Positions 14,079 through 29,419 of a stretch of DNA of 32,000 bases are shown here, piece after piece (position 1 is the first letter of the stretch; every line of letters starts with the position of its first letter). Source of the stretch: Thermodesulfobacteriota bacterium (lineage in GTDB: Bacteria; Desulfobacterota; WTBG01; JAGOGO01). The DNA lies in contig CP113000.1 in NCBI GenBank assembly GCA_026625185.1, positions 705,622 through 737,621 of the forward strand. The letters are read 5' to 3'. The position numbers and the translations under genes were made by a program. The notes beneath the pieces are model-generated. The model made no database searches and was not told the DNA's origin. It worked only from the letters and a program-made list of their open reading frames with translations.

Positions 14079-15359
14079 TTAAAAAAGGCTCAACTGCTTT
14101 GCGTTTTTCTCTTTTTCATTAAAAATTTTGACCTTCCCGTATTCTCCGTCGTAGCCCGAAAGAATGTTCACCTTGCCTTTCCGCACTTTGTCTATGGCTT
14201 CGGGGAGTAAGTTGAGGCCGGAATTTTTTAGGGAGGCCAAGGGACATTTCCTGAGGATGTAAAGCTCATTTCCCAAAAGTCGAAGAAGTCGAAAATAATC
14301 TTGCTGGACTTTCTGACTCCTGACTCCTGATTCCTTAATTTCACTGATCACCCCCGTGAGTCCGATAAGGCTTTTAAAAGTCGGTTTTCCATCCGGCATA
14401 AAGCCTGAAGGACGATCCGCCAATTCGGTTACCCGGTGCATAACTCCCACCGTAACTTTTTTACCACACTTTGGACACATCCCTCCCTGTTTGATGGTTT
14501 CCGCCGGCGAGAGCCGTTCTCCACAAGCGCGGTGACCGTCAAAGTGGTACTTTCCTTCTTCCGGGAAGAATTCGATGGTTCCTAAAAACTCGCCTTTCTC
14601 TGGATTATTGAGCGCATCGAGAATAGAAAAATAAGAAAGTTCGGTGGAAAATATATTTGCTTCCCGGCCGATGCGATCAGGAGAATGGGCATCGGAGTTG
14701 GAGATGAGGGTTATTTTATCCAGAGCAGAAAGCCGCCAGTTCATGGGAGGATCAGAGGAGAGGCCGGTTTCAACCGTGTGGACCAACGGGGTTAACTCTT
14801 CAAAGCATTCTTCAAGAGAGTCAAAGCCGCTGTTTGCGCCCAAGACCGAGAAGTGGGGAGTCCAGACGTGCGCGGGAACAAAATATGTCTCGTGAGAGGC
14901 ATCAAGCGCCATTCTCAATAATTCTTTGCTGTCCAGCCCCAGGATGGGTCTTCCATCCGATGCGAGGTTGCCTACTTTTGTGAGCATGGCATTTAAACGG
15001 GAGACAGAACGAAGGTCAGGGAAGAAGATGAGGTTATGGACTTTACGGGTCTTTTCATGTTTTTTGTAAATGCTGCTGATTTCTACCGACAGAATAAATC
15101 TAACCAATGCCCGGCAGGATTCTGGAATCTCCTCGTCAATTTTTTGACGATATTGGGGCTTTAAAACAAATAGGCCCGGTTCAGCCGGCTCAAGCTTTTC
15201 GCTGAGTTCTTTAAACCATTTTGGATTGGTAAAATCTCCGGTCCCTACTACGGTTACTCCCTTGAGTTGAGCCCACTTATAGATATTATCGAGATTCATC
15301 TCCCGGCTGGTAGCCCGGGAAAGATGGGAATGAATGTGAAAATCAGCAATAAATTTCAT
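14079..15359 (-). CDS. endoQ: PHP-domain endonuclease Q-like protein (TIGR00375 family)
   Basis: 426 aa. Motifs include DFHIHSHLSRATS, VGTGDFTNPKWF, SNSDAHSP..IGREAN, the zinc finger KYHFDGHRACG...CPKCGKKVTVGVMHRVTELAD, and a C-terminal GYDGEYGKVKI. These match my recollection of Pyrococcus EndoQ. Its stop lies 1 nt before the helicase ATG. Confidence 0.8.
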   Translation of the reverse strand: MKFIADFHIHSHLSRATSREMNLDNIYKWAQLKGVTVVGTGDFTNPKWFKELSEKLEPAEPGLFVLKPQYRQKIDEEIPESCRALVRFILSVEISSIYKKHEKTRKVHNLIFFPDLRSVSRLNAMLTKVGNLASDGRPILGLDSKELLRMALDASHETYFVPAHVWTPHFSVLGANSGFDSLEECFEELTPLVHTVETGLSSDPPMNWRLSALDKITLISNSDAHSPDRIGREANIFSTELSYFSILDALNNPEKGEFLGTIEFFPEEGKYHFDGHRACGERLSPAETIKQGGMCPKCGKKVTVGVMHRVTELADRPSGFMPDGKPTFKSLIGLTGVISEIKESGVRSQKVQQDYFRLLRLLGNELYILRKCPLASLKNSGLNLLPEAIDKVRKGKVNILSGYDGEYGKVKIFNEKEKNAKQLSLF

Positions 15360-15370
15360 AAAACTTTTAA

Positions 15371-15408
15371 CTCAGAAATCAGGAGTCAGAAGTCAGGAGT
15401 CAGTCTCC
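15371..15408. repeat. heptamer array (TCAGRAG-type units), distal flank of the four-helix-bundle cassette
   Basis: The plus strand reads ctcagaaATCAGGAGTCAGAAGTCAGGAGTCAGtctcc. This is inverted relative to the array at 15741..15780. Confidence 0.7.
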
Positions 15409-15411
15409 CTT

Positions 15412-15732
15412 TCAGCGGGATTCCACCTGAGATATCAAATTACTTGTCTCACTATATCCAGGATCTCGGGTAAGAATCAAGTAGTAACGACATTACTCCA
15501 ATGAACCCTGAGCAATGTTCATAAATCGAAATTTGTCTGCCTTGCCAGTTTTTCTAAAGCCTTCTGCTATGTTGGCCGGGATTGAAACTGCAGCCCGTCG
15601 AAACTGAGTAGTCAAACCATATATCTCATTGTTAGGAAAATACTAAGTAGCTTGATAAATAGAAATTATAAACTCATGAGCTTTCTGCCAGCCTACCAAA
15701 TCTTGAAAAGTTTTTGCTTTCAGTCTTCCCAT
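15412..15732 (-). pseudogene. four-helix-bundle protein gene (23S rRNA intervening-sequence protein family, TIGR02436/PF05635-like) with two in-frame stops and a truncated 3' end
   Basis: The minus-strand frame reads MGRLKAKTFQDLVGWQKAHEFIISIYQAT*YFPNNEIYGLTTQFRRAAVSIPANIAEGFRKTGKADKFRFMNIAQGSLE*CRYYLILTRDLGYSETSNLISQVESR*. The motifs FQDL.VWQKA, RRAA.SIP.NIAEG and AQGS..E..Y are family hallmarks. There is a TAG at 15643-15645 and a TAA at 15493-15495. GGAG sits 7 nt before the ATG. Confidence 0.8.
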
Positions 15733-15740
15733 TTTGTCTC

Positions 15741-15780
15741 CAGTCTTATGACTCCTGAATTCTGTCTTCTGACTTCTACC
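15741..15780. repeat. heptamer array (GRAGWCA units in minus-strand sense), proximal flank of the four-helix-bundle cassette; starts at the stop codon of the radical SAM gene
   Basis: The minus strand reads TAG AAGTCA GAAGACA GAATTCA GGAGTCA TAAGACT GGAGACA AA ATG, about six tandem 7-nt units. Confidence 0.7.
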
Positions 15781-17068
15781 TATATTTTACCTCCTGTTTA
15801 ATGAAAGTCTCGAGGGTGGCATCAAGATAATTCTTGCGGCATTCTAAAGCATCTAAATTACCTTTTTGGATAAATGTCGTATACCGGCAGCCACCAAAGC
15901 ATAGCGGCAGGTAAACACATTCAGCGCACTCCTGATGGTCTTTCCAAAGGCCAAGCTTATAAGAGCGGGTATAATCGTCAATGCCGCTTCGAACATTTCC
16001 TACCGCAAACCCCTCCTTGCCGATAAAAGCCGGACACTTATAAATGACCCCGTCAAAATTGACCACAAAAGAACTATTGTTGTCAACCATACAAAAAATG
16101 GGCGTAATTTTGGGGGTATTATAACTTCGTTTGAGTATCTCTTCCCGCAAAAATTCCGAGGCCTTAATAAGCCAGGGCTCGTCCATGGACATACAGCCGT
16201 CGTTATAGTCAGCAGGCGACACATCTCCCTCCGGCCGTTTGGAAACCGGGTCAAACTTAATGCCGCCAATCTTATCCGGTTTAATCCCTTCCTTAATCAA
16301 AAAATCAAGAAGGGAAACGAATTGCCCACAGTTGTTTCTTTCAAAATTTCCTCCGATGCTGATTTTTACCAGGTCACAGGTTTCCTTGATATTTTTTATG
16401 AGAGTATCAAAACTGCCGGCTCCTGACTTAAAAGGCCGGTATCGGTTATGAACCTCAGCCGGTCCATCGAGGGTAATCTTAATCCTTTCCAGCCCTAAAG
16501 GAACCAGCTCTTCTGCCACTTGCCTTTTGAAGAGCGCGCCGTTGCTGACCAGAGTGAAGTTAAAGGATCCTCCTTTTTCCTGGGCAAACCCCTTCAGCTC
16601 AAGGGAAATTGATTTGATTAATCCTAAGCTCAGGAGAGGCTCCCCTCCGTAAAAGTCTATGAGCAGTTTTTTCTTTTCTCCGATGAAATCTTTTTTGATT
16701 AAATCTATCAGGGAGGCAGCAGTCTCATCCGACATATAGAGATTCCCCTTCATGTCTCCTTCATAACAGTATAGGCAGGCAAAGTTGCAGTCGAGATTGA
16801 GAACCACCATACTGTTCAAGACCGGATTCATTGCGTTCTTCCTGTCCACCAGGCTGCGAATATCCCGCTTTTCCTTCTCCTGGTCAGGTACTATCACTCC
16901 GTGCTTTGTTAACAAAGCCTCATCCTCAGGCGAAAGGGCGCCTTGTTCTATCGCCTGAAAGGTCTCTTCTTTAATGACAATAACGGAGCTTCTTTTGGTG
17001 GAAAAAAGCAAAAGATAGCCCGGTTTTTCCTTGTAAGGATATACTTTAAGGAAATGAGAAACCTGCAT
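15776..17068 (-). CDS. radical SAM/SPASM-domain peptide-modifying enzyme (candidate RiPP maturase)
   Basis: 430 aa. The cluster motif is C94-X3-C98-X2-C101 (LDCNFACLYCYEG), followed by GGEPLL. The N-terminal extension of about 85 aa resembles the peptide-recognition regions of SPASM maturases. The C-terminal auxiliary-cluster cysteines are IFCMV, VIYKCPAF, HQECAECVYLPLCFGGCRY and LECRK. AGGAGG sits 5 nt before the ATG. Confidence 0.85.
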   Translation of the reverse strand: MQVSHFLKVYPYKEKPGYLLLFSTKRSSVIVIKEETFQAIEQGALSPEDEALLTKHGVIVPDQEKEKRDIRSLVDRKNAMNPVLNSMVVLNLDCNFACLYCYEGDMKGNLYMSDETAASLIDLIKKDFIGEKKKLLIDFYGGEPLLSLGLIKSISLELKGFAQEKGGSFNFTLVSNGALFKRQVAEELVPLGLERIKITLDGPAEVHNRYRPFKSGAGSFDTLIKNIKETCDLVKISIGGNFERNNCGQFVSLLDFLIKEGIKPDKIGGIKFDPVSKRPEGDVSPADYNDGCMSMDEPWLIKASEFLREEILKRSYNTPKITPIFCMVDNNSSFVVNFDGVIYKCPAFIGKEGFAVGNVRSGIDDYTRSYKLGLWKDHQECAECVYLPLCFGGCRYTTFIQKGNLDALECRKNYLDATLETFIKQEVKYR

Positions 17069-17146
17069 TGCGCCTCCTGTTCACCCTGTTAGATGTTTGT
17101 ATCTAATGTAGTGAATCTACCACTTCTTTACATAAACTCCAGGACC

Positions 17147-17360
17147 GTCATTCCCGTCCCCGCCTTCGCGAGGATAAACTCCAGCGGGAATCCAGACCGA
17201 AAACACTGGATCCCGGGTCAAGCCCGGAATGAGAATTACAGTCTATCGGGCGAGGCAAGCCTTGCCCCTACATATTCGGGTGCAACACGGTTGCGCCACT
17301 ACGTCTTCTGGGCAAGGCACGCCGTGCCCCTTCATCTTCTGCCTTCTGTCTACTGACTCC
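17147..17360. repeat. composite repeat block filling the spacer between the small ORF and the radical SAM gene
   Basis: There is a GTCATTCCCG...CGGGAATCC hairpin element (17147-17196) and CCCGGG..CCCGG (about 17212-17228). Three GC-rich hairpins follow: GGCAAGCCTTGCC, GTGCAACACGGTTGCGCC and GGCACGCCGTGCC. A heptamer array ends the block (17331-17360, minus sense GGAGTCA GTAGACA GAAGGCA GAAGATG). Track ORF 17093..17356 is simply a translation of these repeats. Confidence 0.75.
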
Positions 17361-17409
17361 CTTACTTTTTAATAATCCTCATACCCTCCCCTTCTTCTTC
17401 TTCACTTCA

Positions 17410-17514
17410 TTAGCCTCTAAATGCAAACAGCGGTCCCCAGCAACATCCCCCCCATCCCTCAGGGGTAAGCTCATCAATACCTTCGTCAATGATAATGATT
17501 TTTTCTTCTTTCAT
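17410..17514 (-). CDS. 34-aa candidate RiPP precursor peptide MKEEKIIIIDEGIDELTPEGWGGCCWGPLFAFRG
   Basis: Hand translation of the minus strand gives an ATG at 17514-17512 and a TAA at 17412-17410. AGGAGG lies 7 nt upstream (aaaAGGAGGattaccATG). The ORF is on the same strand as, and immediately upstream of, the radical SAM/SPASM gene. The peptide has a bipartite acidic leader-like half and a Gly/Cys/aromatic core-like half. It falls below the ORF-track length cut-off. Confidence 0.65.
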   Translation of the reverse strand: MKEEKIIIIDEGIDELTPEGWGGCCWGPLFAFRG

Positions 17515-17553
17515 GGTAATCCTCCTTTTTAATAAAGATTAAAAAATTTACCT

Positions 17554-17570
17554 GTCAGAAACATTCTGAC
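17554..17570. promoter_or_regulatory. perfect 7-3-7 palindrome GTCAGAA-ACA-TTCTGAC about 40 nt upstream of the small ORF; candidate operator or member of the GTCAGAAG repeat family
   Basis: Read directly from the sequence. It is followed by a direct repeat TGGTTACT at 17571-17578 and 17590-17597, giving a 19-nt period. Confidence 0.3.
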
Positions 17571-17613
17571 TGGTTACTAAGCTTATGAATGGTTACTCTG
17601 AGATCCCTTCTTG

Positions 17614-17652
17614 TCACCTCACCTCAATCCTATCCCCGCCGGGGAGAGGAGG
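17614..17652. repeat. TCACCTCAATCC..CCCCG-CCGGGG-type hairpin repeat, copy 1
   Basis: The sequence is tcacctcacctcaatcctatCCCCGccGGGGAgaggagg. It shares the TCACCTCAATCCT head with the copies at 17901..17980 (inverted) and 25188..25255. Confidence 0.6.
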
Positions 17653-17659
17653 TTGGAGT

Positions 17660-17699
17660 AAAAAAAATAGCCGGTTACCTTTGTTGGCAACCCGGCTAT
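17660..17699 (-). terminator. intrinsic terminator (minus-strand sense: hairpin followed by eight U); weaker in the plus sense
   Basis: The stem ATAGCCGG (17667-17674) pairs with CCGGCTAT (17692-17699), with extra inner pairs. The A8 run at 17660-17667 becomes U8 after the hairpin on the minus strand. Confidence 0.65.
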
Positions 17700-17825
17700 C
17701 TTAAATTTTTAAGATCCGTGGCTTTCCGGCCCCGCCTCACGACGGGTATGGCTTTGTCACATTTATAACATTCTCTTAACCTCCTCCACTGCATTATTAA
17801 TGGGAGCATTAAATATGATTGTAAT

Positions 17826-17900: not shown

Positions 17901-17980
17901 TTCTACCATTCGACCTTTTGACCCTGCGACTTTTTACTTCCCCTTCCTCTCCCTTTGGGGAGAGGATTGAGGTGAGGGGA
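17901..17980. repeat. 80-nt dispersed repeat, inverted copy of 25188..25255
   Basis: The reverse complement reads tcccctcacctcaatcctctccccaaagggagaggaaggggaagtaaaaagtcgcagggtcaaaaggtcgaatggtagaa. Copy 25188 reads tcccctcacctcaatcctttctccaagggaagtaaaaagtcgcagggtcaaaaggtcgaatggtcgaa. The outer blocks are identical and the middle differs by an indel. Confidence 0.8.
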
Positions 17981-18283
17981 CATTATGTCATCAATTAATT
18001 TATGTTCTAATTATTAGAGCACTGCGTGGAGGAAAAGGCTAAGCGTATTCAGTTGTAGGAAAAAATCTTGGGGGATTTCGACCTTGCCCCGGCCATTTCG
18101 GGTGAAAACGATTTCGCGGAAAACAATTAACCATCATTCTGGTTAATCATCCTATTGGAATGTCTCAGGGTTAAATACGCAAGCTAAAACCTCCGGCTAC
18201 AACTGCCTTCACCACATCGTCTTTAAATTACAGCACGGTCTTTCTCTAAGAGTGACACCCTCCTTCAGAAGAGGGTATTTACA

Positions 18284-18539: not shown

Positions 18540-20501
18540 TTATTTAAATTTAATTCTTATTCCGGCCTCTACCCACCTTTGGGGGTTTTTAAATTCCGGT
18601 CGGGTATAATTAGCGCCGTTAAACAGGTTGTGGGCCGTAAAAAAAAGCTCGGGTGTGGTCTTTTCCTGGACAAAAATTTTCTTGGCGAGGTTCAGGTCCC
18701 AGAGAAAATTATCATATTTTGCCATGCTCCTGGAATCAAGGTTCCACCACACATAGTGGCCAAAAAGCTCCGCCCGGATTGATTTATTGTCATCATATCG
18801 GAAGCCAAGGGAGTAGGAATAGGAGTTTTTGGTGCCACTAGCTTCAGTGGGAGGAGAGAAATGGACGTAAGAGAAACCGCCGACAAAATAAAAATTATAA
18901 AACGAGACGGTTTGCAGTTCCATTTCTCCGCCCTGCCTCCTAACCTTTTTACCATTAACAAGGGTAAAATATGGTGATGGAAATGGTTCATACTGAGCCG
19001 TTAAGGTATCTTTAATCTCATGCCGGAAAAAGGTCGCCTTTAACCAGAAGTACTTGAGCGCCGCGGTTTCCCCGCCAAATTGGTAGGACATGATTTTTTC
19101 CGGGTTTAGGCTTGAATTGGGCTTTGCAAATAATGTTCCCCCTGAAAGCATTGAGAGCGGAGGAATGGTAAAACCTCGTGCCACTGAAGCCCGTAAGATT
19201 GAATCCCGCCAAATTCGATAGGTTACGCCAAGGCTCGGACTGACAAAAGAGCCGGTAATATTGTTACGGTCATACCTGATCCCCGGGGTGATGGACCACC
19301 TGTCAATGACAATGGTGTCATTGGCATACAGTGCCCATCGGTTAATGCCCGGGCTGGTAGTCGCCATTGCCGGCAAGCCATATATTAGTTGGAGTAAATT
19401 CCCGGCTTTGAGTGTCTGGTCGAGCGTGCCGCGGTCAAATTCTCCGCCAAAAACCGCGGTGTGCATCCCATGAGTCCAGGTAAATTTTGCGTCCCCTCCG
19501 GTGTTCTCCTCATCATAAATGCTGTCCTGCATTAGGGATCCAGGGGGATCCCAAGGAAGTCCGAACAGACCAAGGGAATCGCTCGTCAGTGAAAGTCTCT
19601 GCTTGAATTCGTGAAAGGACATGGCAAAACTTAATTCTTTGGTGAGGGAAGCATCGAGGGACGCAGTTGCGAAAAAAGTCCGGCTTGCTCCTTTTTGGGT
19701 GATATCTCCACTCGGAAAATCGCCAATCTTCACCTCCGGCTCACTGTACCCGAGGGTAAAGTCAGTATTTACCTTGCTGGAAACCGGGAGGTGAAACTTG
19801 GAGTAAAGGTTGTAGTCTTCAACAAACTCCCGGCCATCTCGCAAACCATCAGATTCCTGGTGCCCCGCATAAAGATAATACCCCATTGGACCGGCTAAGC
19901 CCGCGACCTGAGCTCGATAATCTTGGGTGTCTCTCTCGCCATACGAAGCGCTCAAAGAGCCTGAAGGCCGGGTGGTTTTTCCCGCGTCCTTGGTTATAAT
20001 GTTTACCACCCCCCCCAGGGATGACCCCCAGGATGAAGAGGCAGGGCCTTTGATAACTTCGATCCGCTCAATGATCCCCACGGGAATTGTATTAGTTTCC
20101 GCATGTCCGTCAGAGAGAAAATTCCAACGGATGCCGTCTACCACAACGAGGACATGCCGTTCCTCCGAGCCTTGGCTGAGCAATAATGAGGTTGCGCCAA
20201 AATCCTGATTAAAATTAATAAAGAGGCCCGGGATCCGGTTCAGGACATCAGCCACCGTATGAGCGTTCATATTTTCGATTTCTTGGGCGGTAATAACCGT
20301 GATATTTTCGGCAACCTGGGAGATCGGTTTGGCGTTTCGGGTAGCGGATACTACCAGGTCTTTTTCCTTATAAAACATCTGGAGAACTTGCATCTCCTCC
20401 TCGGACTGGGCCAAGGAGGAAGGGCAAAAAAGGAAGAGAGGGAGGTTTAAAAAGAACACAAAAAAACAAACGATTAGGATGCGTTGGTCCCTAAAATTCA
20501 T
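18540..20501 (-). CDS. TonB-dependent outer-membrane receptor
   Basis: 653 aa. It has a signal peptide (ILIVCFFVFFLNLPLFLFCPSSLAQ) and plug-domain motifs (DLVVSATR, ITVITAQEI, NRIPGLF, IERIEVIKGPASSSWGSSLGGVVNIITK). The C-terminal part is long, rich in beta-strand-like sequence and ends in an aromatic-rich segment. Confidence 0.9.
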   Translation of the reverse strand: MNFRDQRILIVCFFVFFLNLPLFLFCPSSLAQSEEEMQVLQMFYKEKDLVVSATRNAKPISQVAENITVITAQEIENMNAHTVADVLNRIPGLFINFNQDFGATSLLLSQGSEERHVLVVVDGIRWNFLSDGHAETNTIPVGIIERIEVIKGPASSSWGSSLGGVVNIITKDAGKTTRPSGSLSASYGERDTQDYRAQVAGLAGPMGYYLYAGHQESDGLRDGREFVEDYNLYSKFHLPVSSKVNTDFTLGYSEPEVKIGDFPSGDITQKGASRTFFATASLDASLTKELSFAMSFHEFKQRLSLTSDSLGLFGLPWDPPGSLMQDSIYDEENTGGDAKFTWTHGMHTAVFGGEFDRGTLDQTLKAGNLLQLIYGLPAMATTSPGINRWALYANDTIVIDRWSITPGIRYDRNNITGSFVSPSLGVTYRIWRDSILRASVARGFTIPPLSMLSGGTLFAKPNSSLNPEKIMSYQFGGETAALKYFWLKATFFRHEIKDTLTAQYEPFPSPYFTLVNGKKVRRQGGEMELQTVSFYNFYFVGGFSYVHFSPPTEASGTKNSYSYSLGFRYDDNKSIRAELFGHYVWWNLDSRSMAKYDNFLWDLNLAKKIFVQEKTTPELFFTAHNLFNGANYTRPEFKNPQRWVEAGIRIKFK

Positions 20502-20773: not shown

Positions 20774-20915
20774 AGACAGAAATTAGCAGTCAGAAGACAG
20801 AAGACATAGGGGCGCAACGTGTTGCGCCCGATAGGCAGGAAACAGAATGGGAAGAGGGAAGGCAAAAATTTTCAAGATTTGATAGTCTGGCAAAAAGCTC
20901 ATGAGTTTGTTATTT
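20774..20915 (+). pseudogene. 5' remnant of a second four-helix-bundle (IVS protein family) cassette: heptamer array, GC hairpin and the first 24 or so codons, frameshifted
   Basis: The elements are AGTCAGAAGACAGAAGACA, the hairpin GGGCGCAAC-gt-GTTGCGCCC (20810-20829), and ATG at 20847. ..KNFQDLIVWQKAHEFVI is readable in a shifted frame. The sequence parallels the start of the 15732 copy (ATGGGAAGA..TTTCAAGATTTG..TGGCA.AAAGCTCATGAGTTT). Confidence 0.7.
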
Positions 20916-20923
20916 TTAAATTC

Positions 20924-21820
20924 ATGATTACAAAAATTTTTACTTTCTTCTTAATATTCGTATCTTGCTACGGTTCGGCTGAAGCTGGCCAGCGGATTCT
21001 CGTTATTCAAAGCCTCAGAGTTGCACCCTATGAGGAAGCGCTTGCCGGTTTTAAAAGCGCCTGTGATGCTGAGATTATGCAAGTAGTGCTTTCCAACCAG
21101 GATAAAATCAATCCTTTCCAGATAATTCAAGCCGACAAACCGGAACTTATTCTTGCCATAGGGATGGATGCGCTTACCAAAATAAAAGAGATCGAAGATA
21201 TTCCGATTGTTTATATGATGGTTCTCAATCCTCAGGCAATTACTTTCGGAGAAAAGAATATAAGCGGTATCAGCATGACGCTCTCTCCCGAAAAACAGAT
21301 CACTACCCTCCTGGAGGTTTTACCGGCGGCAAAAAGGGTCGGGACCTTATACAATCCGGATAGAACCGGCAATTTTATAAAAGGGGCGGTGACTGCGGCT
21401 AATAACATGGGTATCTCTTTGTTAACCGAAAAGGTTCAGAACACAAAAGAGTTGCCTTCCGCATTAAAAAATATTCAGAAAAAGATAGATGCCTTCTGGA
21501 TGATCCCGGATATCACCGTGTATTCTCCTGAGACCATTGAGTTCCTGCTTCTTTTCTTTCTCGAAAATCAGAAACCGATCATCGCCTTTTCAGAAAAATA
21601 TGTTGAGCTCGGTGCAGTAATGTCAATCAGCGTAGACCCGCTTGATATAGGCAAGCAGGCCGGTGAGATGGCTAAAGCAATCCTTTCCAATGGGGGCAAG
21701 AGGGATATTCAACGGATTGATGCCCGCAAGGAAGTAATAGCCATTAACCGGAAGATAGCGAAAAAGTTGGGAATCACCATTGATGAGAAGGTCTTAGCAA
21801 AAGCTAAGCTTCTAAACTAA
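20924..21820 (+). CDS. periplasmic solute-binding protein of the ABC_sub_bind (PF04392-like) type, probable sensing partner of the downstream kinase
   Basis: I moved the start to the ATG at 20924, where a signal peptide begins (MITKIFTFFLIFVSCYGSAEA). The track's upstream extension (20819-20923) translates the IVS-cassette remnant. Family-like features are RILVIQSLRVAPYEEALAGFK and the C-terminal INRKIAKKLGITIDEKVLAKA. No obvious SD. Confidence 0.7.
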   Translation: MITKIFTFFLIFVSCYGSAEAGQRILVIQSLRVAPYEEALAGFKSACDAEIMQVVLSNQDKINPFQIIQADKPELILAIGMDALTKIKEIEDIPIVYMMVLNPQAITFGEKNISGISMTLSPEKQITTLLEVLPAAKRVGTLYNPDRTGNFIKGAVTAANNMGISLLTEKVQNTKELPSALKNIQKKIDAFWMIPDITVYSPETIEFLLLFFLENQKPIIAFSEKYVELGAVMSISVDPLDIGKQAGEMAKAILSNGGKRDIQRIDARKEVIAINRKIAKKLGITIDEKVLAKAKLLN

Positions 21821-21829
21821 AGACACAAG

Positions 21830-23800
21830 ATGAATTTAAATTTTCTTAAGCTCCTGAGTGAAAAATTCAGCGTTAAGGTATTCGTTACCTTTACAGTTTT
21901 TTTATTCATCATTTTCTCTTCTTTCACGGTCTTTTTTTACTATCAGCAAAGTAAAGCCCTCACCAATACCTTGATAAGAAACTCAGAATTACTTGTGGGG
22001 GTTCTTGCCTATAGTGTGAGGCTCGGCGTTATTTCGGAAAATCAAGACCTGCTCCAAGTTGCGGTTGAGGGAATTTTTCAACAGGAAAACGTCTTAGAAA
22101 TTTCTGTATTTAATCTGCAGAAAAATTTATTAAAAAGGCTAAAGAAATATAAAGTCACGGATCAGCAGACATCAGCACGCGAAGATGAAAAAGTTCCGGG
22201 TAACGTAATCGCAAACTTCAGGCAGGATCAGCCTCTGGTTTTGCTTAAAGGCAAGGACTCCATGGAATTATGGTCGCCGGTCATCACTACCCCCGGATAT
22301 TCTTCTGAAGAGGATCTGGTTCTGGGGGAGCGCAATTTGAAAAAAAGGGAGCTTATCATTGGTGCGGCAAAAATAACCATTGATAAAAGCGGCCTCAAAA
22401 AACGGCTCGATGGCCTGTTATTGAAAAGTGTTTTAATGGGTTTTGTTTTTTGGGGCATCGGTTCTTTACTTATATTTATCATGACCAGGCAGATAACAAC
22501 CCCCCTTAAACGACTGACAACAGGGGTGTACACCCTCGGTATCGGAGGCGTGGTCAGTGAGGTGGTGGTTGAGACCGGGGATGAAATCGGCAAACTCGCT
22601 GACGCATTTAACACTATGCTTGACGCCTTAAAAAAAAGGGAAGCAGAAAAAGAACAACTCCAGGAACAGCTCCGGCATTCCCAAAAAATGGAAGCAATCG
22701 GAACTCTGGCCGGCGGCATAGCCCATGACTTTAATAATATCCTCACGGCGATAATGGGTTTTGGGGGACTGATCCAAATGAAAATCCCAAAAGAGAGCCC
22801 GATCAGTTCTCATGTCGAACAGATACTCGAATCAGCGCAAAAGGCAGCAAGCCTGACCAAGAACCTTCTTGTGTTCAGCAGAAAACAGTTGAGCGCTCCC
22901 GCACCGTTAAATCTTAACGAAAGTATCAGCAACTTAAAAAAGCTTCTCGGGAGACTGATTAAAGAAGACATCGAGTTTAAGGTCGAACTGGGGAAAAATG
23001 ATTTGGTCGTCATGGCTGACCAAGGGCAGTTAGATCAGATCTTCATGAATCTCGTTACCAATGCCAGGGATGCCATGCCCAAAGGTGGTGTGTTAACTAT
23101 TTCTACCGGGGCAGCACAGTTGCCTCCCCATATTGTAGACCCGTCACAACCAAAAAAATTAGGTGGCTATGCCCTTATCTCGGTTAGCGATACCGGCATT
23201 GGGATAGATGAGAAGACTCAGGAAAAAATTTTCGACCCCTTTTTTACCACGAAAGAGGTGGGGAAAGGAACCGGTCTTGGTCTTTCCATGATCTATGGCA
23301 TTGTGAAAAAACATGACGGGTATATTGACGTTGCAAGTGAGGTTGGCAAAGGAACAACCTTTAACATCTATCTTCCCTTGATTGATTCTACATTTGAAAA
23401 ACAAAAAGAAAAAGCTTCGCGCCCGCTTAAAAGGGGCACTGAGACAATACTGGTCGCAGACGATGATCCGGCAGTTGCGAGCCTGGTGAAAAGGATCCTG
23501 GAAGAATTCGGGTACAAAGTCATCGAAGCGCGCGATGGAGAAGATGCGATCGAACAATTTCTAAAACACAAGGATGATATCCATCTCTTGCTTCTGGATG
23601 TCATCATGCCTAAAAAGAACGGGAAAGAGGCTTTCGATGGGATAAGAAAAATCAAGCCGGAGATAAAAGCAATTTTTATCAGCGGCTATTCCGCTGAGAT
23701 TATTGACGAGCAAGCAATTCTTCAGGGGTTGCATTTTATCGGCAAACCGGTTTCCCCGGAAGAACTTTTGTATAAGGTACGAGAAATTCTGGATAATTGA
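21830..23800 (+). CDS. hybrid sensor histidine kinase (TM-sensor-TM, HAMP, HisKA, HATPase, C-terminal receiver)
   Basis: 656 aa. TM2 is VLMGFVFWGIGSLLIFIM, the HAMP end is GDEIGKLADAFNTMLDAL, and the H-box is GGIAHDFNNIL. The ATPase boxes are NLVTNARDAM, DTGIGID and GKGTGLGLSM. The receiver region reads ILVADDD, LLLLDVIMPKKNG and FIGKP. Confidence 0.9.
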   Translation: MNLNFLKLLSEKFSVKVFVTFTVFLFIIFSSFTVFFYYQQSKALTNTLIRNSELLVGVLAYSVRLGVISENQDLLQVAVEGIFQQENVLEISVFNLQKNLLKRLKKYKVTDQQTSAREDEKVPGNVIANFRQDQPLVLLKGKDSMELWSPVITTPGYSSEEDLVLGERNLKKRELIIGAAKITIDKSGLKKRLDGLLLKSVLMGFVFWGIGSLLIFIMTRQITTPLKRLTTGVYTLGIGGVVSEVVVETGDEIGKLADAFNTMLDALKKREAEKEQLQEQLRHSQKMEAIGTLAGGIAHDFNNILTAIMGFGGLIQMKIPKESPISSHVEQILESAQKAASLTKNLLVFSRKQLSAPAPLNLNESISNLKKLLGRLIKEDIEFKVELGKNDLVVMADQGQLDQIFMNLVTNARDAMPKGGVLTISTGAAQLPPHIVDPSQPKKLGGYALISVSDTGIGIDEKTQEKIFDPFFTTKEVGKGTGLGLSMIYGIVKKHDGYIDVASEVGKGTTFNIYLPLIDSTFEKQKEKASRPLKRGTETILVADDDPAVASLVKRILEEFGYKVIEARDGEDAIEQFLKHKDDIHLLLLDVIMPKKNGKEAFDGIRKIKPEIKAIFISGYSAEIIDEQAILQGLHFIGKPVSPEELLYKVREILDN

Positions 23801-24206: not shown

Positions 24207-25100
24207 TTACCCACACTTTTTCAGGATGAGTTTATTCTTTATTTCGAGAAAAAGCTCATAGGCTTCTTGCGGTTTTAGGTTCTTATGAACAACTCCACGA
24301 ACCGCTTGAATCATAGCCTCCGGGGCATCTGATTGGAAAATATTTCTGCCCATATCCACCCCCGCAGCGCCTTCCTGGACGGCATTATAGGACATCTGAA
24401 GAGCTTCCAGCTCAGGGAGCTTTTTCCCTCCCGCCATTACCAACGGAACCGGGCACGAAGCGGCAACTGTGTCAAAACCATCGGGGATATAGTAGGTCTT
24501 AATGTAATGGGCGCCCAGCTCAGCGCAGATCCGACACGCGAGGCGGAAGTATCGAGCGTCCCGGGCCATATCCTTGCCCACGGCAGTAACTGCGAGAATA
24601 GGGATTCCATAGCGATTTCCCCTATCCACTAAACGGGTCATGTTATGGACGGATTGGGTTTCGAATTCTCCTCCGATAAATACCTGCACCGCTAAAGCCG
24701 ATACATTGAGCCGGACCGCATCTTCCATGTCCACCGCAATTTGTTCATTGGAAAGTTCCTTCAAAATACTCGGCCCGCCGGTGGCCCGAAGAACGATTCC
24801 CCCTCGATAGGTTGGCGGTATCGTTGTGCGCAAGATACCCCTGGTGAGCATAATGGTGTCGGCATAGGGAGCGAGGGGGACGATGTTTAAATCAATTCGC
24901 TCAAGCCCCGTTGTCGGTCCTTGAAAATATCCATGGTCAATTGCCAGCATCACGGTGCGACCGGTATCAGGGTTAAATATGCGGGCGAGGCGGTTTTTGA
25001 TCCCCCAATCGAGGGCGTGTGAGCCTTTTAAAAAAAATCCCTCAGTCTTTACGGGAATATCGAGACCATAATCTTTTCCTTCTTGATCTACTTCCGGCAT
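24207..25100 (-). CDS. LsrF-like class I aldolase-fold enzyme (DhnA/FbaB/LsrF family; possible 3-hydroxy-5-phosphonooxypentane-2,4-dione thiolase-like)
   Basis: 297 aa. The motifs [41 protein letters not shown], the catalytic-Lys region HYIKTYY, and [11 protein letters not shown] closely follow E. coli LsrF as I remember it. This is a memory-based comparison only. Confidence 0.75.
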
Positions 25101-25187
25101 TGTTTTCCTCCTTGATAAATTTTGGGGTTTGCTATTCGGTCCTGCACGGTTTTATTAATCAGGGCATAAATATTATGACACCTAATC

Positions 25188-25255
25188 TCCCCTCACCTCA
25201 ATCCTTTCTCCAAGGGAAGTAAAAAGTCGCAGGGTCAAAAGGTCGAATGGTCGAA
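25188..25255. repeat. dispersed repeat, direct-orientation copy of the 17901..17980 element
   Basis: See the 17901..17980 feature. It lies in the ADH/LsrF-like intergenic spacer and is followed by another small hairpin, CCCTC-gttcttga-GAGGG. Confidence 0.8.
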
Positions 25256-28549: not shown

Positions 28550-29419
28550 ATGTACTATGATATGCCCCTATATCGTCCACCGAGTGAAGCTTACTCGCTT
28601 ATTTTTCAGGTAACTTTAGGGTGTTCTCACAACCGTTGTGCTTTTTGTATCGCATATAGGACAAAAAAATTCTGCATCCGCTCTTGGGAAGACCTTAAGT
28701 CGGATATTCTTGAAGCAGCCCTTTCTTATCGCAGGATTGACAAGATTTTTCTTGCGGACGGTGACGCTCTGGTGATTGATACGGACTACATGCTTCAGAT
28801 TTTGAGTTTCCTTTACGAAAAGTTTCCTCATCTGGAGCGGGTGAGCGCTTATGCTGGTCCGGCTAATCTTCTGGAAAAATCCCCTGAAGACCTTCAAAGG
28901 ATCCGCAAGGCCGGTCTCCAGATGTTATACTTTGGCATTGAAACCGGCGATGATGAACTTCTCCTCAAAGTAAAAAAGGGAGCAACAGCCCAAGAACTGA
29001 TTGTTAGCGCCAGAAAAGCTATTGATGCCGGCTTTGTGTTTTCAGCAATCGTTATTCTTGGCCTCGGCGGGAAAAAGGCAAGTGTAACTCATGCGATTGA
29101 AACCGCACGAGTCTGTTCAGCGATCAATCCTCAGTATCTTTCCGCCTTAACACTTATGATTGAGGATGATAACCAGTACTTTTTCCGCTGTATGGGGAAG
29201 GAGTGGGAGTGGATGGACAAATTGGAAATGCTCAAGGAGCTTCGTCTTATGATCGAGAACTTTAACTTGGATAATTGCGTGTTTCGCACCAACCATGCTT
29301 CTAATTATCTTCCCATCAAGGCGACGCTCAATCACGATAAAGATAGGCTTTTAAAAGAGATCGATAATGCTTTAAAAAATCCTGAGCACCTACGACCGGA
29401 ATTTTTGAGGGCTTTATAG
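28550..29419 (+). CDS. radical SAM protein of unknown function with CX4CX2C cluster spacing
   Basis: 289 aa. The N-terminus is PLYRPPSEAYSLIFQVTLGCSHNRCAFCIAY, followed by ADGDAL and YFGIETGDDELL (a GGE-like / TIM-barrel pattern). The ATG lies 2 nt after the polX stop. Confidence 0.75.
   Translation: MYYDMPLYRPPSEAYSLIFQVTLGCSHNRCAFCIAYRTKKFCIRSWEDLKSDILEAALSYRRIDKIFLADGDALVIDTDYMLQILSFLYEKFPHLERVSAYAGPANLLEKSPEDLQRIRKAGLQMLYFGIETGDDELLLKVKKGATAQELIVSARKAIDAGFVFSAIVILGLGGKKASVTHAIETARVCSAINPQYLSALTLMIEDDNQYFFRCMGKEWEWMDKLEMLKELRLMIENFNLDNCVFRTNHASNYLPIKATLNHDKDRLLKEIDNALKNPEHLRPEFLRAL

Follow-up and report, generated by a model that had tools for sequence, protein, structure and literature searches.

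The window considered here is a stretch of 32,000 nucleotides from a Thermodesulfobacteriota bacterium (assembly GCA_026625185.1, contig CP113000.1, positions 705,622 to 737,621 of the forward strand), and the system in question is a pair of minus-strand genes within it: a 34-codon open reading frame (ORF) and, after it, the gene of a 430-residue radical SAM enzyme with a SPASM domain. A preliminary description of the window had proposed that the two encode the precursor and the maturase of a peptide made by the ribosome and modified after translation (RiPP) and belonging to no named precursor family. The first part of this proposal was borne out by a family hidden Markov model (HMM) and by a conserved gene cassette around the pair. 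The second part must be corrected, as the locus is predicted to be a divergent member of a named family, the geopeptide system. Its core consists of three features:

17410..17514, minus strand: geopeptide-type precursor gene, divergent, recognized from its sequence and with a family HMM
17521..17526, minus strand: Shine-Dalgarno sequence AGGAGG, separated by 6 nt from the precursor ATG
15776..17068, minus strand: geopeptide radical SAM/SPASM maturase of 430 aa, a full-length match to TIGR04280

The maturase is the part of the system that is most readily named. TIGR04280 ("geopeptide radical SAM maturase") aligns with residues 1-430 of the enzyme over positions 1-428 of its 428 and scores 574.3 bits (cutoff 400), and the identical protein at NCBI is named [quoted passage not shown]. 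The CX3CX2C motif is present as C94-X3-C98-X2-C101 (PF04055, 47.5 bits vs 29.5), and the C-terminus contains a complete 7-Cys SPASM domain (C326...G340-X4-C345, C381-X2-C384-X5-C390-X3-C394, and C410; TIGR04085, 56.2 bits, cutoff 27). Both motifs had been pointed out in the preliminary description, and their residues are all invariant in an alignment of 18 homologues with 60-86% identity; homologues as a whole number in the thousands. The next NCBIfam models, far below their own cutoffs, are CefB, TIGR04463, Clo7bot, PapB, a nif11-type maturase, the SCIFF maturase, and QhpD, of which CefB, TIGR04463, Clo7bot, PapB, SCIFF, and QhpD are maturases of Cys-rich peptides. Among the thioether synthases, PapB (NF047865) reaches 144 bits against a cutoff of 340, SCIFF (TIGR03974) 110 against 425, and QhpD (TIGR03906) 94 against 453; by these scores the enzyme is related to the PapB/SCIFF/QhpD synthases but falls outside those families. 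With TIGR03942, the model of anaerobic sulfatase maturases (anSME), the enzyme scores 70.3 bits where 349 are required, and neither PQQ nor mycofactocin models appear among the top NCBIfam matches. Judged by its profile matches, then, the enzyme is a member of TIGR04280 and lies outside the anSME and cofactor clades, a placement within which would, according to the preliminary description, have refuted its proposal.

Among solved structures, both sequence and predicted fold put CteB (5WHY/5WGG), the SCIFF thioether synthase, closest to the enzyme, followed by TigE (8VPO) and anSME. In an AlphaFold2 model of the maturase, residues ~1-80 are predicted to form three strands followed by three helices (pLDDT 78-91), which is an RRE-like topology, while confidence is low around the Fe-S sites, as expected for a model built without cofactors. 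The N-terminus of the maturase gives no sequence-level alignment to CteB.

The product of minus strand 17514..17410 is MKEEKIIIIDEGIDELTPEGWGGCCWGPLFAFRG, followed by a stop codon, and the coordinates in the preliminary description were correct. Its leader-like half is MKEEKIIIIDEGID, and its core contains Cys24-Cys25 and a C-terminal tail, WGPLFAFRG. The exact 34-aa product has already been called on eight public contigs, where it is labelled "hypothetical protein". For comparison, 79 genomic loci with relatives of the maturase were collected (locus labels such as L001 and L071 refer to these) from Desulfobacterota, Nitrospirota/Thermodesulfovibrionia, Geobacteraceae, and one Deferribacteres bin. 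The lack of a conserved small upstream ORF in homologues had been named beforehand as one of several observations that would refute the proposal. Where the enzyme has 40% identity or more, however, almost every locus does have a small same-strand ORF just upstream of the maturase; the precursor-maturase arrangement was found in about 57 of the 62 loci that have upstream sequence. Five outgroup loci, with enzymes only 27-29% identical, have no such small upstream ORF with a Cys-Cys pair.

The peptides of this family share a common plan. They start with Met and a Lys/Glu-rich stretch, continue with a beta-strand-like leader, (E)I[IV][IV]LD.G[ILV]D, and, after about 8-12 variable residues, end in C-C-x-G-x-h-x-[PA]-[FILVY]-R, so that the Cys-Cys pair lies ~10 residues from the C-terminus. 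Across 56 peptides the two cysteines are the sole invariant columns, with Ile6 and Gly12 of the leader nearly invariant. Outside the Cys-Cys pair the core is highly variable and holds no second conserved ligand residue, and the P-[FIL]-R tail is conserved within clades. The preliminary description had seen in the Trp and Phe residues of the core a substrate for aromatic cross-links. This does not hold for the family: the closest relatives have cores ending ...DGWQACCWGPLFAFRG (L071) and ...EARVCCAGPYFAFRG (L001), and, with no conserved Trp, streptide- or darobactin-type linking was rejected as a chemistry of the family. In a Nitrospirota subgroup (L050, L053, L057, L064, and L065), a long Lys/Ala/Thr-rich, histone H1-like leader takes the place of IVVLD.G (for example, MATTKKTAAKKTTKVAAKKKPAKK...GCCSSIGNSSRR), and the Cys-Cys pair is kept.

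An HMM built from 53 peptides upstream of homologous maturases, with the two nearest relatives left out, matches the window peptide at 41.6 bits (E 4e-12), the sole match among 952 six-frame segments of the window. Since the ORFs were first chosen with the help of the Cys-Cys pair, the test was repeated without this filter: a Cys-Cys pair then appeared in the longest same-strand ATG ORF of the gap between receptor and enzyme genes at 43 of 52 loci, whereas background ORFs of comparable length contain one at a rate of 3.4%. Substitutions in the precursor relative to L071, the closest orthologue, are biased to the third codon position, with 8 synonymous and 6 non-synonymous codons and 3/4/9 nucleotide changes at the three codon positions. 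The curated precursor model, TIGR04229 ("geopeptide"), aligns residues 8-27 of the window peptide with positions 3-20 of its 22 at 15.8 bits (E 0.009). Its cutoff of 30 bits is reached by none of the 56 collected peptides, of which 24 match weakly; the curated model therefore covers a narrow part of the family, which accounts for an enzyme that has a name beside a peptide that has none. We count the window peptide as a divergent member on account of its score, and its layout is that of the Geobacteraceae locus L036, with a leader strand, x-G, a spacer of ~10-14 residues, Cys-Cys, and a short tail. In terms of its sequence and conservation, the 34-codon ORF is thus a conserved RiPP precursor gene of divergent geopeptide type.

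The pair is embedded in a conserved set of neighbours. At 72 loci, all ORFs of 90 aa or more that lie no farther than about 4 kb from the enzyme were clustered, and four genes proved strongly conserved:

57 of 72 loci, same strand: TonB-dependent receptor of ~640 aa, directly upstream of the peptide
44 of 72 loci, divergent from the receptor or downstream of the maturase: PF04392 (ABC_sub_bind) periplasmic binding protein
33 of 72 loci, immediately after the binding-protein gene: sensor gene
24 of 72 loci, directly after the maturase and often overlapping its stop: half-size efflux-type MFS protein of ~190 aa

Three of the four have a counterpart in the window:

18540..20501, minus strand: receptor with Plug and TonB_dep_Rec_b-barrel domains (Pfam), BtuB-sized, the first gene of the receptor-peptide-maturase block
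20819..21820, plus strand: PF04392 binding protein, ORF of 333 aa (Pfam, 126 bits), divergent from the receptor
21830..23800, plus strand: hybrid sensor histidine kinase (HAMP, HisKA, HATPase, and REC)

The order receptor, peptide, maturase is fixed, with the MFS gene last in many relatives, and many of the loci without a receptor are truncated contigs. Receptor homologues and maturase homologues share contigs, at parallel identities, and the best 120 receptor matches listed are all close cassette members; the window receptor also matches the PqqU-type receptor family of NCBIfam weakly. Every binding-protein gene has a gene for a sensor as its partner, and in no case genes for an ABC permease or ATPase, no cluster of which occurs among the conserved neighbours of the 72 loci. 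The sensors are histidine kinases with sCache, HAMP, HisKA, and HATPase domains, sometimes with REC, and in several loci NtrC- or LuxR-type response regulators lie beside them. The window kinase has a periplasmic or transmembrane N-terminal region of ~200 aa and starts 10 nt after the binding-protein gene. A single 1.18-Mb contig (CAWEQH010000010.1) carries two complete cassettes (L040 and L054), whose peptides differ and which have a separate receptor, binding protein, and sensor each. The half-MFS protein (e.g., L032 5302-5865 and L002 5306-5911) has six helices, covers only the first half of MFS_1, and resembles the exporters Tet, MdtG, Bcr, and MxcK; in 24 loci its translation is coupled to that of the maturase. 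The window cassette thus consists of receptor, peptide, maturase, binding protein, and kinase, without the MFS protein. The preliminary description had called the locus a bare precursor-maturase pair with no protease or exporter adjacent; this is literally true of protease and exporter in the window, and it overlooked the receptor, the PF04392 protein, and the kinase that are conserved next door.

The called start of the binding protein is probably wrong. The first ~35 codons of its ORF (20819-20923, GTG start) derive from a fragment of a four-helix-bundle gene, and a signal-peptide-like sequence begins at ATG 20924 (MITKIFTFFLIFVSCYGSAEA...), which is probably the true start. The same fragment takes part in a larger pattern, as a 60-nt inverted repeat with 85% identity (15660-15719 and 20859-20918) exactly brackets the receptor-peptide-maturase block. 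Each arm is the 5' part of a four-helix-bundle (TIGR02436) gene, the copy at 15732..15493 being a split pseudogene. Strings of the form AGTCAGAAGACAGAA, similar to heptamer-type repeats found elsewhere in the window (CTGACTC / GAGTCAG), lie ahead of both fragments. The two cassette arrangements seen across loci, with binding protein and sensor either divergent upstream or co-directional downstream, correspond to an inversion of the bracketed block. Just beyond the cassette kinase, on the opposite strand, lies a gene (24207-25100, minus strand) for a 3-hydroxy-5-phosphonooxypentane-2,4-dione thiolase (497 bits vs a cutoff of 297), an AI-2-processing enzyme of LsrF type.

Upstream of the precursor the window contains further elements on the same strand:

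17682..17761, minus strand: riboswitch aptamer of the c-di-GMP-I clan, Rfam RF03167 (c-di-GMP-I-GGC)
17660..17699, minus strand: intrinsic terminator serving as riboswitch expression platform, from a terminator-like site at 17692..17673 and the minimum-free-energy fold
17541..17573, minus strand: palindrome or hairpin CCAGTCAGAATGTTTCTGACAGG followed by the T-run TAAATTTTTT, about 15 nt upstream of the Shine-Dalgarno sequence

The aptamer matches positions 1-80 of the 80 positions of RF03167 at 70.2 bits (gathering score 59, E 7e-15, cmscan), and the next gene downstream is the 34-codon precursor. The 5' arm of the terminator, AUAGCCGGGUUGCC, is the 3' strand of the aptamer; it is followed by the loop AACAAA, the 3' arm GGUAACCGGCUAU, and eight U. 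The terminator stem is 14 bp long, and the minimum-free-energy fold adopts it (z -3.1). Because one strand serves both structures, the ligand-bound aptamer and the terminator are mutually exclusive, which is the design of an ON-switch. At the junction position of the cmscan alignment the variant consensus has G (GACGCGAAG) and the window has A (GGCCGGAAAG). At the three positions that we take, from the structure of Vc2, to be ligand contacts, the window reads G/A/C, like canonical c-di-GMP binders. With c-di-GMP-I (GEMM-I) riboswitches in general, the element shares a full RF03167 match above the gathering score and a terminator that overlaps the 3' strand of the aptamer; it differs in that the gene downstream encodes a RiPP precursor. 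No report of a c-di-GMP riboswitch upstream of a RiPP precursor was found in the literature, and to our knowledge this would be the first riboswitch-controlled RiPP precursor. A nearly identical riboswitch is present in L001. As a family-wide feature the riboswitch was rejected, for it occurs only in the window organism and in L001 among about 35 loci scanned.

The near-perfect palindrome CCAGTCAGAATGTTTCTGACAGG is identical in L001, despite diverged flanks, and is matched in L071 at 91% identity over 45 nt; it may serve as an operator or form another terminator-like hairpin. A search for sigma-54 promoters, made because NtrC-type regulators occur in some cassettes, returned none scoring at least 9/11 within 150 nt upstream of 58 precursor genes. 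The promoter region of the receptor and the binding protein is very AT-rich, so that a chance match to a Fur-type box there would be uninformative.

The spacers on both sides of the precursor are unusual:

17069..17409, minus strand: precursor-maturase spacer of 341 nt, with GC-rich hairpins (fold z -1.8)

In most relatives the corresponding spacer is 40-75 nt long, as opposed to the 341 nt in the window, which include a terminator-like hairpin at 17230..17210. A decayed tandem precursor was considered as the origin of this spacer and rejected, since it has no homology to the repeats of L071 and only one 34-nt hairpin in common with L001. The spacer between receptor and peptide is about 1 kb long, and GC-rich palindromic repeats fill both spacers. 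GC-rich palindromic elements of the type "cccctcacctcaatcctctccccaaagggagagg" and hairpins lie between the genes around the peptide (17901-17988 vs 25180-25255, 17612-17637 vs 17957-17982, and 17240-17340), and repeats of the "cccctcacctcaatcctctccccaaagggagagg" type recur elsewhere in the window.

The copy number of the precursor also varies. Other assemblies of the same organism (L080 5849-6105; L081 6001-6257) have two identical tandem precursor copies with a 152-nt period and flanks that are 100% identical, with AGGAGGATTACC kept before the ATG of both copies, and the contigs L082 and L083 break exactly at this repeat. In view of this, the one copy seen in the window may reflect a repeat that was collapsed. 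Among the closest relatives, L071 (2277-3745) has nine precursor copies that are identical at the nucleotide level, with a 166-nt period, and L001 (2820-3620) has five repeat units, three of them intact.

Compared with the geopeptide system of the databases (TIGR04229 and TIGR04280), the window agrees in its full-length enzyme above the trusted cutoff, in the precursor gene immediately upstream on the same strand, and in the receptor gene upstream of that. It differs in its peptide, which scores 15.8 bits where the precursor model demands 30, and in what its lineage has added (the riboswitch, the repeat-filled spacers, and the tandem precursors) or is without (the half-MFS gene). With SCIFF/CteB and the ranthipeptide enzyme PapB, its best structural and sequence neighbours, the system has in common the radical SAM/SPASM plan, with a putative RRE-like domain ahead of it, and Cys substrates. 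It differs from them in offering one vicinal Cys pair instead of several spaced cysteines, in a genomic setting, with receptor, binding protein, and kinase, that does not resemble the loci of SCIFF or PapB, and in scores far below their cutoffs. By analogy, the window system probably works like sactipeptide or ranthipeptide maturation.

The identities and order of the parts, the leader/Cys-Cys/tail architecture of the peptide, and the overlap of riboswitch and terminator are features of the locus itself. The reading that we prefer, with a probability of roughly 55%, is that they make up a divergent geopeptide RiPP cassette whose product is exported, recaptured, and sensed in the periplasm. Binding of a cyclic dinucleotide would stabilize the aptamer, block the terminator, and turn the precursor on, and the maturase would be transcribed by read-through past leaky hairpins. 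The RRE-like N-terminal domain of the maturase could then dock the beta-prone leader (IIIID.G), and the SPASM enzyme would abstract a hydrogen atom from the core and link one or both Cys sulfurs to a residue of the tail, giving a thioether of the sactipeptide or ranthipeptide type. Thioether formation on the Cys-Cys core is favoured because the nearest characterized relatives act on Cys-rich peptides and because CteB, PapB, and QhpD make thioethers; reasoning from these relatives, we give this step slightly less than an even chance. Export would proceed through the half-MFS protein where it is present, and by some other route in the window. The cognate TonB-dependent receptor would pull the product back across the outer membrane, and the periplasmic PF04392 protein would bind it and signal through the kinase next to it. 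The PF04392 proteins of solved structure have Trp, Tyr, or Phe as ligands (PMC10443332), which fits a peptide tail that ends in an aromatic residue and Arg. The tandem precursor copies in L080, L081, L071, and L001 were counted toward high-output production. Because the binding-protein gene is always accompanied by a sensor and never by an ABC permease or ATPase, we lean, on gene content, toward an autoinducer-like signal, possibly metal-carrying, rather than a nutrient taken into the cytoplasm.

Several points weigh against this reading. The window peptide is below the curated TIGR04229 cutoff, the overall confidence of the maturase model is modest (mean pLDDT 66), and a PqqD/RRE domain was not detected at sequence level in searches of Pfam and of PDB profiles. 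Exporter and protease are both absent from the window, and tblastn finds no half-MFS in its cassette. The riboswitch is specific to a lineage, with neither L071 nor any of the 32 other cassette loci scanned possessing it, and as ~1 kb of repeat-rich DNA and a terminator separate receptor and peptide, their co-regulation is not evident in the window. That a TonB-dependent receptor gene adjoins a gene does not prove that the product of that gene is the ligand of the receptor. No paper on the geopeptide system or on TIGR04280 was found, and the proposed chemistry is predicted from genes. Reactions of SPASM relatives differ widely: the second-best structural neighbour, TigE (8VPO), is described as a cyclopropylglycine synthase (PMC10878394), and the thioether step therefore has a weak basis.

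Other products were considered, the most probable of which is a peptide-derived metallophore. Methanobactin operons combine MbnA, the TonB-dependent transporter MbnT, the binding protein MbnE, and an exporter. By the same logic, a small Cys-containing RiPP would here stand beside a TonB-dependent importer, a periplasmic binding protein, and an efflux pump: the modified Cys-Cys core would chelate a thiophilic metal of which sulfidic, anoxic habitats offer little, the MFS protein would export the peptide, the receptor would re-import the metal complex, and the binding protein and kinase together would report metal status. The half-MFS protein does resemble drug and siderophore exporters, including MxcK; the tandem amplification of the precursor suggests stoichiometric consumption; and the hosts are all anaerobic Desulfobacterota, Nitrospirota, or Geobacteraceae. 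However, the cassette has neither a conserved importer of the inner membrane nor a conserved metal-responsive regulator, the core varies outside the Cys-Cys pair without a second conserved ligand residue, and Cys sulfurs would be poorer ligands if they were thioethers. The solved PF04392 relatives of the binding protein, moreover, bind aromatic amino acids (PMC10443332). The likeness to methanobactin is confined to transport and sensing and includes no shared enzyme: the maturase here is a radical SAM/SPASM enzyme instead of MbnBC (MbnB and MbnC genes are not among the conserved cassette neighbours), the PF04392 binding protein is coupled to a histidine kinase, and a sigma/anti-sigma pair is absent. 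A dedicated metallophore is an unlikely product in our view. A second use to which such a peptide could be put is that of an antimicrobial, sactibiotic-like bacteriocin, with receptor and sensor serving regulation or immunity instead of recapture. The closest characterized enzymes include sactipeptide and ranthipeptide synthases, hypervariable cores and tandem precursors are common in bacteriocin loci, and the outliers L007 and L008 have no receptor gene, a C39-like peptidase gene lying instead beside the cassette at L007, the one of the two whose neighbours were annotated. The typical cassette, in turn, is without a C39 ABC exporter, an immunity gene, or a double-glycine leader, and a producer that encoded an uptake receptor dedicated to its own toxin would be strange, the more so with the receptor conserved in 57 of 72 loci; a bacteriocin thus appears improbable.

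The invariance of the cysteines in an otherwise freely varying core could also mean that nothing but Cys-Cys survives maturation, as in an intracellular redox cofactor or small molecule like PQQ or mycofactocin, with the receptor scavenging the product as PqqU does for PQQ. An RRE-like domain joined to radical SAM and SPASM domains is the architecture of PqqE and MftC, a small ligand would go well with a small efflux MFS protein and with a binding protein whose family binds amino acids, and PqqU-type receptors are an NCBIfam family that the window receptor matches weakly. Against this, no protease, oxidase, or other tailoring gene is conserved in the cassette, the enzyme is far below the PQQ and mycofactocin models, the clade-conserved P-[FIL]-R tail argues that more than the Cys-Cys pair matters, and the nine identical precursor copies of L071 are excessive for a catalytic cofactor; we regard this explanation as very improbable. 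Finally, the 34-codon ORF might be a product of chance, with the enzyme acting elsewhere, for instance as a sulfatase maturase. Its TIGR04229 score and its annotation as a mere hypothetical protein could be read in this way, and yet the family HMM match (E 4e-12), the conservation of position, strand, and motif across two phyla, the perfect Shine-Dalgarno sequence, the third-position bias of its substitutions, the identical tandem copies in relatives, the riboswitch directly upstream, and the 70 bits of the enzyme with the anSME model (cutoff 349) effectively refute it.

For the preferred reading of an exported, recaptured, and sensed geopeptide, the most specific form would be a circuit, widespread among anaerobic Desulfobacterota, Nitrospirota, and Geobacteraceae, in which new SPASM chemistry on vicinal Cys-Cys yields a product that is secreted, recaptured through TonB by its own receptor, and sensed by the binding protein and kinase, either as an autoinducer dependent on TonB for access to its sensor or as a signalling metallophore, gated in this lineage by a riboswitch. 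We put this form forward tentatively, as a possibility that is doubtful in its entirety. Since no paper on the geopeptide system was found, this kind of system is known only from database curation, that is, from genome comparisons. The curated precursor model misses most of the family, whose enzymes are named and whose precursors are unnamed or uncalled. The present comparison adds that the geopeptide genes form a fixed cassette together with those of a receptor in the outer membrane, a binding protein in the periplasm, a sensor kinase, and, in many cases, an efflux pump of half size. It also adds that in one lineage the precursor has come under the control of a cyclic-dinucleotide riboswitch. 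New in the window is therefore a member of a named family with lineage-specific extras (riboswitch, tandem precursors, and loss of the MFS gene). The receptor and sensor cassette, the vicinal cysteines, and the riboswitch gating remain as leads; they provide the testable hypothesis that a secreted Cys-Cys peptide is recaptured and sensed by environmentally important anaerobes, and a compact two-gene target (34 aa and 430 aa) for SPASM action on vicinal cysteines.

A few observations concern the outliers and the remainder of the window. L007 and L008 are without a receptor gene, and their peptides end ...CCWGPSGSVVFWW and ...CCCWGPTGPFFW, respectively; the adjoining gene in L007 (1295-3076, minus strand) encodes a protein of 593 aa that contains a C39-like peptidase domain. 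A further, unrelated radical SAM protein of 289 aa without a SPASM domain is encoded about 11 kb away (28550-29419, plus strand), where its gene adjoins those of a PolX/PHP protein and an M17 aminopeptidase. On the other side of the cassette, inverted heptamer-type repeats, CTGACTC / GAGTCAG, at 14313-14340 and 15369-15403 flank a TIGR00375-family gene (14079..15359).

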